This document shows, piece by piece, positions 35,881-37,925 of a stretch of 64,000 bases of DNA (positions within the stretch are counted from its first letter, which is position 1; each line of letters begins with the position of its first letter). The position numbers and the translations under genes are program-made. This stretch comes from an uncultured Gemmatimonadaceae bacterium. GTDB taxonomy: Bacteria > Gemmatimonadota > Gemmatimonadetes > Gemmatimonadales > Gemmatimonadaceae. The stretch covers positions 12,943 through 76,942 of the forward strand of contig CAWGJO010000039.1 of the NCBI GenBank assembly GCA_963822945.1, read 5' to 3'. The notes under the pieces are model-generated. The model did no database searches. It saw nothing but the letters and a program-made list of their open reading frames with translations, and had not been told where the DNA came from.

Positions 35881-35903
35881 AGCCGCGGAACGACGAGTTC
35901 AGG

Positions 35904-35930
35904 GTCGGCGGTCCACGGTGGACCGTCGAC
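35904..35930. terminator. hairpin between the convergent nadE and HNH genes
   Basis: GTCGGCGGTCCA-CGG-TGGACCGTCGAC. Confidence 0.6.
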
Positions 35931-35961
35931 TGTGCACGCTCGACTTCAGGTCACGCTGGTC

Positions 35962-36366
35962 TCACGCCGCTTCCGCATACGCCAGACTCACCGCCCGCCG
36001 CGCACAACGCTTGAGCGCCCGATGGACGGCGCGCGCGTAGTGAATGAAGTTCAGGCCCGCCCAGGGAAAGCGGGCGAAGAACTCACTCGGCAGCAGATCG
36101 GCCTTCAGACGATTGCAGCGGCAACAGGCCAGGACGAGGTTGCCGGGATTGTGGGTGCCACCTTTGGCGAGCGGAAAGACGTGGTCCAGCGTGGCGGTCT
36201 CGAAGTCGAGACACGCCCCGCAGTACACGCAGCGGCGGCCGCAGTCGCGCATGGCCGCGCGCTTGAGCGCACGCTTCTGGTTGGCGGGGTGGGTCCGGCG
36301 GGCACGGCGCGGTGCCCGTGGGACGCGAGGGAGGGTGACGTGGTGATAGTGCCGACGGCCGGACAT
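35962..36366 (-). CDS. small HNH endonuclease (134 aa) with an Arg-rich N-terminus
   Basis: GAGGTG RBS before the ATG at 36366. CVYCG...TLDHVFPLAKGGTHNPGNLVLACCRCNRLK. Confidence 0.9.
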   Translation of the reverse strand: MSGRRHYHHVTLPRVPRAPRRARRTHPANQKRALKRAAMRDCGRRCVYCGACLDFETATLDHVFPLAKGGTHNPGNLVLACCRCNRLKADLLPSEFFARFPWAGLNFIHYARAVHRALKRCARRAVSLAYAEAA

Positions 36367-36378
36367 TTCACCTCGCGG

Positions 36379-36570
36379 AAAAAGGAGACACCCCGCGACG
36401 GGACAGGAGTCCCATTGCGGGGTGTCGCACCGGCTCTCGGTAGCCGGGTTCGGAAGACGAAGCACGTGCGCCGCTCGCGCGGGCGCATCGGACAGGCAAT
36501 TCGTCGCTGTCGGAGCGGTGCGTGCATTCGCCTCCGGTTGGCGAGAGACGGGCGCCGTGCCCGCCTGGCC
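36379..36570 (-). ncRNA. candidate structured RNA / attenuator leader upstream of the HNH gene (unassigned family)
   Basis: Five consecutive stem elements, a 6-bp loop-to-downstream complementarity (GACGAA/UUCGUC), and a final long hairpin followed by UCCUUUUU. Confidence 0.55.
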
Positions 36571-36664
36571 CATAAATGTGAGGTCGCGCCCGATCGCGCA
36601 AGACTTTTCTGCGTCGATCTCGCCACCGGACGGGTCACGGGCCGGTCACGGCGGCGGCCGGTGC

Positions 36665-36901
36665 TCAGCCGGCGCCTCCTGGCAACCGGCCGTCGGTGAT
36701 CCGCAGCACGGCGCCGTGCGCATCTACCACGTCGGCTGCGGCGGGCGCGCGCTTCCGGAGTTCGGCGCTCGATCCGACCGCCACCACGCAATCGTCAGCC
36801 AGCGCGACCGCGTCGGCCCACGGACGCCGCGGGTCGCCCGTCTGGACGCGGGCGTTGACGATGACGCGGGTGATCTCGGTGCGGTGGGGAGTATCGGGCA
36901 T
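36665..36901 (-). CDS. stand-alone amidohydrolase-3 N-terminal beta-domain-like protein
   Basis: IVNARVQTGDPRRPWADAVALADDCVVAVGSSAEL...VVDAHGA resembles the YtcJ-type N-terminus, but the ORF stops before the PGFxDxHxH motif. Confidence 0.6.
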   Translation of the reverse strand: MPDTPHRTEITRVIVNARVQTGDPRRPWADAVALADDCVVAVGSSAELRKRAPAAADVVDAHGAVLRITDGRLPGGAG

Positions 36902-36977
36902 CGGCGGCGGAACACGCAAAGCGCTTCAATAGGCGCACGTTAGCTTACAGGAATTCCGAACACCAGCCACCGTCCCC

Positions 36978-37925
36978 ATGCACTCCATCGCGACCAACAT
37001 CTGGTTCTGGGTAGGGTTCATCGCGTTCGTGCTCGCGATGTTGGCGCTCGACCTGGGCGTCTTCCATCGCGAAGCACACGAAGTGCGTCCGCGCGAAGCG
37101 GCGATGTGGACGCTGGCCTGGGTGTCGTTGGCCATGGTGTTCGCCGGCGTGCTCCACGTGTTCGAGCCGCGGGGGACGGCCATCACCTTCCTCACCGGCT
37201 ATCTGCTCGAGGAGTCGCTGAGCGCCGACAACATCTTCGTCATCGCGCTCATCTTCGCGTACTTCGGGGTGCCCAAGCGGTCGCACCACCGCGTGCTGTT
37301 CTACGGCATCCTGGGGGCGTTGGTGCTTCGCGGCGCGTTCATCGGCCTTGGCGCCCTGCTGCTCGCGCGCTTCCACTGGGTGCTCTACGTGTTCGGCGTG
37401 CTCCTGGTGGTCACCGGCACGCGCATGGCGTTCCACGACGAGATGGCCGAGTTCGACGGCGAGAAGCACCGCGTGGTACGGTTGGTCCGGCGCTTCGTCC
37501 CGATGAGCCCGCACTACGACGGCACGCGCTTCTTCACCTGGGACGGGGCGCGCCGGTTGGCCACGCCGCTCCTGCTGGTGCTGGTGCTCGTCGAGGTCAC
37601 CGACCTCGCGTTCGCCATCGATTCCATTCCGGCGATCTTCGGCGTGACCCGCGATCCGTTCCTGGTGTTCACGTCGAACATCTTCGCCGTGCTCGGACTA
37701 CGCTCGCTGTTCTTCCTGCTGGTGAGCGTGATCGACCGGTTCTACCTGCTGAAGTACGGGCTCTCGGTGATCCTGACCTTCATCGGGGTCAAGATGCTCG
37801 TCGATCACTGGATCCAACTGCCGATCTCGGTGTCGTTGACGGTGATCGTGGCCGTCCTGGCCGCCGCGGTGGGCGCGTCGCTGCTCTTTCCGAAGCGGGC
37901 CCACGCGACCGGGGAGCATCAGTAG
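36978..37925 (+). CDS. TerC/Alx family membrane protein
   Basis: LALDLGVFHR, GYLLEESLSADNIFV, DLAFAIDSIPAIFGVT and TSNIFAVLGLRSL. Confidence 0.93.
   Translation: MHSIATNIWFWVGFIAFVLAMLALDLGVFHREAHEVRPREAAMWTLAWVSLAMVFAGVLHVFEPRGTAITFLTGYLLEESLSADNIFVIALIFAYFGVPKRSHHRVLFYGILGALVLRGAFIGLGALLLARFHWVLYVFGVLLVVTGTRMAFHDEMAEFDGEKHRVVRLVRRFVPMSPHYDGTRFFTWDGARRLATPLLLVLVLVEVTDLAFAIDSIPAIFGVTRDPFLVFTSNIFAVLGLRSLFFLLVSVIDRFYLLKYGLSVILTFIGVKMLVDHWIQLPISVSLTVIVAVLAAAVGASLLFPKRAHATGEHQ

Follow-up and report, generated by a model that had tools for sequence, protein, structure and literature searches.

What does a structured RNA ending in a terminator-like hairpin do directly upstream of a small HNH nuclease gene? 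The question is raised by a locus on the minus strand of the 64,000-nt stretch of Gemmatimonadaceae DNA analysed here (the window; Table 1). A first-pass annotation, made from the sequence, had offered two answers: a particle formed by the RNA and the nuclease, with the RNA as guide, scaffold or antitoxin, or an unknown attenuator or riboswitch gating the nuclease. All the motifs that it listed were found in place. Comparison with relatives bore out both the structured RNA and the terminator-like hairpin, which are conserved in front of an HNH gene that Gemmatimonadaceae carry in single copy. The annotation missed the main part of the leader, a ribosome-binding site (RBS) and an AUG (36527) that lie within the RNA.

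Table 1. Features of the leader and the HNH gene, in window coordinates.
Feature	Position	Strand	Evidence or remark
Promoter -35 element CTTGCGC	36596..36602	-	consensus from 51 different promoters; no variation in alignments A1 and A2
Promoter -10 region CATTTAT	36572..36578	-	conserved CATTTnT 17 nt past TTGCGC
Transcription start	36565-36566	-	inferred from promoter spacing
5' hairpin at transcript start	36546..36566	-	95% of cells paired, 16 relatives
Leader-frame RBS GGAGG	36531..36535	-	G-A-G core and ATG invariant, 28/28
Leader reading frame, 140 codons here	36105..36527	-	AUG at 36527
Leader codons 6-9, CGA-CAG-CGA-CGA, rare Arg codons	36501..36512	-	
Inner hairpin GACAG/CUGUC, clade-limited	36491..36511	-	
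Anti-RBS strand, leader codons about 21-26, includes UUCGUC	36451..36465	-	
Short hairpin immediately 5' of terminator	36430..36447	-	possible pause hairpin
Intrinsic-terminator-like hairpin and U tract	36379..36426	-	hairpin 36387-36426, U tract 36379-36383 (U5); predicted
HNH gene RBS GAGGTG	36369..36374	-	invariant in alignments A1 and A2
Stand-alone HNH nuclease gene, 134 aa	35962..36366	-	Pfam HNH_5/HNH
Palindromic hairpin between HNH and convergent nadE	35904..35930	.	probable shared terminator

The HNH protein is a predicted nuclease whose sequence indicates an intact zinc-finger nuclease active site. The CxxC, DH, N and CxxCN residues that had been called intact are so: C46, C49, D61, H62, N76, C84 and N85 are invariant in 60 homologues, with three of the four zinc cysteines invariant and the fourth kept at 90% or more. 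The N-terminal Arg-rich arm, also pointed out earlier, is present but is the least conserved part of the protein in the same 60 homologues, and the most conserved part is a basic C-terminal helix (residues 102–133). In the predicted structure (pLDDT 81.7), a basic helix of 32 residues comes after the HNH core. The nuclease core is flanked by two basic helices that resemble each other, KRALKRAAMRD (31–41) and HRALKRCARRA (115–125). A fold search with the model returned no match at E 0.001 or better, the best being Cas9 HNH domains and 4h9d.

A family profile (E 1e-25) detected the HNH gene, nearly always as a single copy, in 33 of the 53 genomes from the family and in none of 197 others from the phylum. 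It is present in all 16 other genomes of the genus, and its close relatives come from Gemmatimonadaceae. Among 68 loci, the largest downstream-neighbour cluster (54 ORFs) is a convergent NAD synthetase gene (nadE). Phage relatives were limited to generic HNH matches below 60% identity, and a search for defence families (PADLOC) gave only weak HNH-domain matches. The gene is inherited and chromosomal, not mobile. Just upstream of the leader promoter (36665–36919, minus strand) lies an 84-aa stand-alone piece of an amidohydrolase (PF22039 composite domain), which is equally short (77–85 aa) in six genus relatives, while locus L028 encodes a full-length version; it is either a kept miniature domain or a shared old fragment. 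A TerC/Alx gene (36978–37925, plus strand) begins 59 bp from this divergent short ORF, and no Rfam match precedes it. The TerC/Alx family is often under the control of a yybP-ykoY riboswitch.

The leader is preceded by a conserved promoter. The proposed -35 element TTGCGC is borne out, while the consensus of 51 distinct promoters places the -10 element at 36578–36572 and not at CACATT (36580–36575). This consensus, CTCTTGCGC-N17-CATTTnT, departs from sigma-70 and resembles the heat-shock sigma consensus; a strict sigma-70 scan found no site. The g39 clade (L087, L093, L121–L124) carries a near-canonical TTGACG-N18-TATAGT promoter instead. In the source genome (G000), a promoter matrix scan returned 17 sites, which make up no clear regulon. 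A putative RpoB-like ORF at G000:C20:91441 is preceded by a similar site.

Protein-level conservation of an in-frame extension of the HNH gene from an ATG at 36573, which would make the leader coding, had been named as one of three refuting outcomes. We rejected such an extension: the ATG sits inside the conserved -10 element, the frame is broken by indels in 7 of 16 genus relatives, and its pN/pS of 0.8–1.7 is not that of a conserved protein. In the 16 genus relatives, the HNH frame is nonetheless stop-free between the leader AUG and the terminator. RNA contigs of two runs (share 0.09; equal in size and possibly one data set) contained only the HNH coding sequence of relatives.

The region 36370–36600 folds with -122.4 kcal/mol (z = -4.84), and none of 200 shuffles was as good. 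The terminator-like hairpin and U5 described ahead of the HNH gene are present. The hairpin covaries: its cells are paired at 97% in the 16 relatives of the genus alignment and at 97.5% in the 28 of the family alignment, where 5 of 10 pairs show both-sided changes. The hairpin occurs in all 80 scored leaders, by definition of the set. A lack of conserved structure upstream of orthologues, against which the first-pass annotation had staked its reading, was not what we found: the structure is kept. The 5' hairpin, with both-sided changes in three of eight pairs, probably stabilises the RNA. Other elements vary more, with 93.8% of cells paired within the genus and 55.7% across 28 family relatives for the inner hairpin, and 85% and 72%, respectively, for the short hairpin before the terminator. 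The proposed UCGCC/GGCGA hairpin (81.6%) and CCGCUC/GAGCGG stem (64.6%) are poorly kept.

The pseudoknot proposed between GACGAA and UUCGUC did not hold up. It is paired in 64.6% of cells in 16 genus relatives and in 49.4% in 28 family relatives, a value reached by 119 of 500 shuffles and surpassed by a register slid by +3. We rejected it, as it does no better than shuffles across the family. Its 3' strand has a better partner: in the minimum-energy fold UUCGUCUUCCG, which holds this strand, pairs with CGGAGGCG upstream of the leader AUG, and this pairing is kept in 95.3% of cells in the genus. A 21-nt inverted repeat, 90% complementary, between the 5' end of the RNA (36552–36572) and the start of the HNH coding sequence (36290–36310, codons about 19–26) was likewise rejected, being not conserved, with z below -2 in 6 of 51 loci. 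The RNA had not been recognised as a member of a known family, and an Rfam scan of the window agreed, with nothing at gathering score; at E up to 10, it gave three chance matches far below that score, with RF02033 absent here too. No further copies were found in G000 by BLAST or covariance model. A search of 61 family genomes matched 22, second matches within a genome being the antisense terminator, and the four new matches that were inspected all precede an HNH gene. Two HNH paralogues have no leader.

The reading frame that begins at the leader AUG is selectively kept open. Among 166 strong hairpin and U-tract sites in the genome, this is the only one with a GGAGG-ATG 40–140 nt upstream. Between codon 3 and the terminator's 5' arm, 77 of 80 scored relatives have no stop in the leader frame; the 3 with stops compare with 30 and 36 in the other two frames. 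Counted over 39 clusters (65% identity), the figures are 2.0 versus 12.1 and 17.6. The binomial P would be about 2e-6 if the clusters were independent, a value that overstates the case because the clusters are kin. In the open-frame test, shuffles predicted 13.3 of 28. The first 62 leaders, six of whose starts were placed by eye, had a leader-frame stop in 3, whereas the two alternative frames had stops in 25 and 29. Held-out loci, collected once the rule had been fixed, repeated the pattern, with 0 stops in the 19 of 22 that the script called versus 5 and 7; one mis-called hairpin was left out of the pooled 80. One of the 80 leaders (L024) comes from an unpublished genome (G022), and the result does not depend on it. 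Each of the three exceptions carries an overlapping restart (RTGA, either ATGA or GTGA) whose frame continues through the terminator.

Eighteen of the 98 distinct orthologues fall outside this set. One leader is identical to that of the window, one is cut by a contig end, five are terminator-less in-frame fusions to HNH, and eight have the usual layout but escaped the script or were added later (L021, L116, L139, L127, L128, L107, L111 and L119, the open frames of L107, L111 and L119 being read by eye). The remaining three are real exceptions: L073 is without the RBS-AUG, L026 without the terminator, and L136 has lost the AUG despite keeping the promoter, RBS, CGA-CAG-CGA and terminator.

Beyond the 5' arm, the position of the leader stop is not constrained: of 57 loci, it lies over the HNH start in 38, just after the U tract in 9 and on the 3' strand of the hairpin in 3; four leaders are fused in frame and three stop early. 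This spread would be expected if the ribosome is required on the terminator's 5' arm alone. In the window, the leader frame crosses the terminator and extends over the HNH start, which is in a different frame. The leader AUG acts as the HNH start in loci with fused frames (L087, L093, L120, L122–L124 and L127); such fusion is common in the g39 clade, so that the hairpin there lies within the HNH coding frame. In L065–L067, L077 and L082, the terminator is lost and a leader-type AUG starts HNH in frame. In these five loci and in L061, L064 and L076, a putative HIT-like gene upstream runs straight into the leader region. AUG and terminator are 30 to 218 nt apart, the longest distance being in L078, where 30-nt tandem repeats have stretched the leader and the frame stays open. 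Two loci have the terminator just 30 nt past the AUG, too early for coupling by the E. coli rule (PMC4824070).

These observations bear on the idea of an antitoxin, scaffold or guide role for the released RNA, bound to the HNH protein in the manner of type III toxin-antitoxin or AbiF/RCd22 systems; we regard this idea as quite unlikely. The likeness is one of layout: ToxIN, CptIN, TenpIN and AbiF/RCd22 also join promoter, structured RNA, intrinsic terminator (here a predicted one) and nuclease gene in one unit, and type III systems share the order RNA, terminator, nuclease (PMC5086642). The strongly conserved basic C-terminal helix, and a terminator stem whose sequence is kept beyond the needs of pairing, also speak for it. 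Against this, the leader has neither the pseudoknot nor the tandem repeats of type III RNAs (PMC5086642; no repeats were found in 35900–36700), its central part breaks up into 39 clusters that share less than 65% identity and is anywhere from 30 to 218 nt long, and in several lineages the RNA has been lost or fused into the coding frame, including five losses of the terminator with HNH kept. The gene is a single chromosomal copy beside nadE, and the RNA holds a selected open frame that an antitoxin RNA does not need. Unlike type III and AbiF toxins, the protein is an HNH with no toxin-family match among the Pfam or PADLOC matches listed. HEARO/omegaRNA-IscB likewise has a structured RNA directly upstream of an HNH-containing gene (PMC10055086), but there is no RF02033 match here at gathering score or at E up to 10, the 134-aa protein reaches 32.7 bits with the IscB model (cut-off 175) in a match confined to the HNH part, and the gene is fixed beside nadE, unlike the IscB transposon. 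The particle proposed in the first-pass annotation is thus not supported.

A metabolite-binding riboswitch, which the multi-stem 5' leader and its terminator might bring to mind, is scarcely credible given the same variability in sequence and length, which leaves no conserved aptamer core, together with the lack of an antiterminator and of an Rfam match. Of the second answer offered at the outset, the attenuator part stands, in the form of a leader read by ribosomes, and the riboswitch part falls.

Judged from substitution patterns, it is leader translation that appears to matter and not the sequence of the leader peptide. Peptide pN/pS is 0.5–1.3 in three clades versus 0.05–0.32 for the HNH core, and a conserved peptide was rejected on this ratio near 1 and the lack of a Pfam match; a weak signal (0.54) at leader codons 3–8 in the g39 clade comes from 9 sequences. 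This makes most improbable a non-stop design like that of arfA/brfA, in which the peptide is the product, made from a stop-less RNA and destroyed through tmRNA. The terminator does lie within an open frame as in brfA (PMC6881298), and tmRNA scored above cut-off in 15 of 17 genus genomes; in arfA/brfA, though, the truncated peptide is described there as a conserved active product, whereas the HNH leader peptide ranges from 10 to 70 codons with no sign of conservation, and 3 of 57 leaders stop inside the hairpin, so that their RNA is not stop-less. In G000 itself, tmRNA was not found (ARAGORN; below that cut-off), probably owing to a gap in an assembly that is 88% complete.

Folding predictions indicate that the leader RBS is sequestered by the leader itself. 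Its predicted partner lies near codon 25 in 47 of 57 loci and in 13 of 19 held-out leaders, and its GGAG core is paired in 26–28 of 28 family relatives; the pairing is missing in the g39 clade (0.0–0.42) and in 10 of the 57 other loci. No antiterminator, in contrast, was predicted in a test of 58 loci: the 5' arm of the terminator gains 2.3–3.0 kcal/mol by pairing upstream versus 2.7–4.1 for shuffled arms and 36.5 in the terminator. With a ribosome modelled at six positions, the arm still finds no upstream partner that beats shuffled arms.

This last result weighs against a stall-induced attenuator of the trp, his or whiB7 type, in which a stall at Arg codons 6–9 would free an antiterminator and a shortage of arginine or translation inhibitors would switch HNH on. 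Codons 6 and 8 show Arg/CGA enrichment in roughly half the clusters, and Arg makes up 22% of the leader, which would be in keeping with such a stall; the mechanism has been described for whiB7 (10.1101/2023.06.02.543512). In leaders of that type, however, the frame ends before the terminator, which it does not do here, and we consider a stall-induced switch very unlikely. What the HNH leader shares with the upstream-frame attenuators of wblC/whiB7, vmlR and Sinorhizobium duf1127_1 is a short frame that reports the state of translation to a gene downstream; duf1127_1 depends on the timely loading of a pioneer ribosome (10.1101/2025.01.31.635925). These attenuators turn on under impaired translation through an antiterminator or Rho, unlike the HNH leader, in which no antiterminator was found and whose predicted sign is the opposite.

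As far as sequence and predicted structure go, the comparison supports the promoter, the RBS, the start codon, the open frame, the anti-RBS pairing, covariation in the terminator, the lack of an antiterminator and an intact HNH site. We think it probable that these parts make up a ribosome-coupled attenuator of the pyrBI kind with a self-closing RBS, in which a closely trailing first ribosome blocks the terminator and the HNH gene is transcribed. Transcription would begin at about 36565. The leader RBS would be open only until RNA polymerase has added about 75 more bases, when the anti-RBS strand would close it, and in effect only the first, co-transcriptional ribosome could load. By analogy, a first ribosome that keeps pace would cover the 5' arm of the terminator, blocking the hairpin and allowing transcription of HNH. 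If the ribosome is late or lags, for example on the slow CGA codons 6–9, the hairpin would form and an RNA of roughly 185 nt would be released. The closed RBS would then keep ribosomes off this stop-less RNA, and on the read-through mRNA it would stop later leader ribosomes from overrunning the HNH start. A slow polymerase, the supply of Arg-tRNA and the availability of ribosomes all fit as signals, and any of them may be the one sensed.

The closest precedent is pyrBI (pyrL) of E. coli, where the terminator also lies in a short leader frame, without an antiterminator, and the ribosome blocks the hairpin (PMC5021804, PMC4824070). Tight coupling across that leader is needed against terminator formation, and an upstream stall raises termination (PMC5021804); the terminator lies inside a leader gene of 135 bp, and protection is lost when translation stops more than about 27 nt before it (PMC4824070). 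The HNH leader differs in lacking a U-rich tract before the hairpin and in being GC- and Arg/CGA-rich. Unlike pyrBI, it has a predicted anti-RBS strand downstream that closes over the RBS, it precedes a nuclease gene that it would control, and it can overlap or fuse to that gene. It would work like pyrBI and is not a pyr attenuator. The pyrBI attenuator lies upstream of pyrimidine genes and senses UTP through a U-rich polymerase pause. To our knowledge, tight transcription–translation coupling is not known for Gemmatimonadota.

The long hairpin could instead be a site of processing or translational control, such as a site for a double-strand RNase, with leader translation controlling HNH translation or mRNA stability. 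Its stem of 17–20 bp, its well-kept primary sequence, conserved beyond pairing needs, and the weak U tracts, short and often interrupted, are all compatible with this, as is the overlap of the leader with the HNH start in 38 of 57 loci. Nevertheless, nearly all loci have a U-rich tail after the stem, G000 contains similar hairpins at other sites, and most predicted folds leave the HNH RBS outside the stem; we hold such a site to be unlikely.

For an attenuator timed by the ribosome, the codons of the leader are of interest. CGA is the commonest codon in the leader frame (69 per 1000 versus 28 and 36 off frame), compared with 4 per 1000 codons genome-wide. It makes up 31% of Arg codons in frame versus 20–25% off frame. 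Codon 6 is CGA in 38 of 57 loci and 14.3 of 39 clusters, and an in-frame CGA occurs within codons 5–10 in 20.9 of 39 clusters versus 6.0 and 5.9 off frame; Arg, whatever its codon, occupies position 6 in 19.4 of the 39 clusters and position 8 in 14.1. ARAGORN lists a tRNA-Arg(ACG) and no tRNA-Arg(TCG) in G000 (88% complete). In Salmonella leader assays, CGA is read slowly (PMC4046918). Since the GACAG/CUGUC hairpin is kept in just 55.7% of cells across the family, pairing alone does not explain the CGA codons, and part of the conservation at codon 6 may reflect RNA structure or shared ancestry. CGA at codon 6 is missing in more than half of the clusters and is therefore a lead, not a rule. It is conceivable, though rather unlikely, that the leader is a single-use sensor that weighs the speed of CGA decoding (wobble, tRNA-Arg(ACG)) against RNA polymerase and releases a DNA nuclease when the balance shifts. 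Transcription slowed by nucleotide loss or damage, or a tRNA pool altered by phage, may then be the trigger. If true, this would be a family-wide nuclease switched by codon-reading speed, without a protein regulator or an antitoxin.

We found no description of this leader in the literature searched, whose coverage did not extend to subscription journals and bioRxiv supplements. Few attenuators of the pyrBI type, with the terminator blocked directly by the ribosome, are known, most of them from nucleotide biosynthesis in enteric bacteria. Here such an attenuator appears to be kept across a large soil family, and the new elements relative to pyrBI would be an RBS that closes behind the first ribosome and a conserved nuclease as the controlled gene. 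The locus is also a reminder that a layout of RNA, terminator and nuclease need not mean an RNA-protein system. The five terminator-less loci (L065–L067, L077 and L082) offer a natural deregulated variant. The leader could serve as a compact part for translation-gated expression and as a handle on the function of the core HNH gene, and it would be a natural reporter of transcription–translation coupling in Gemmatimonadota.
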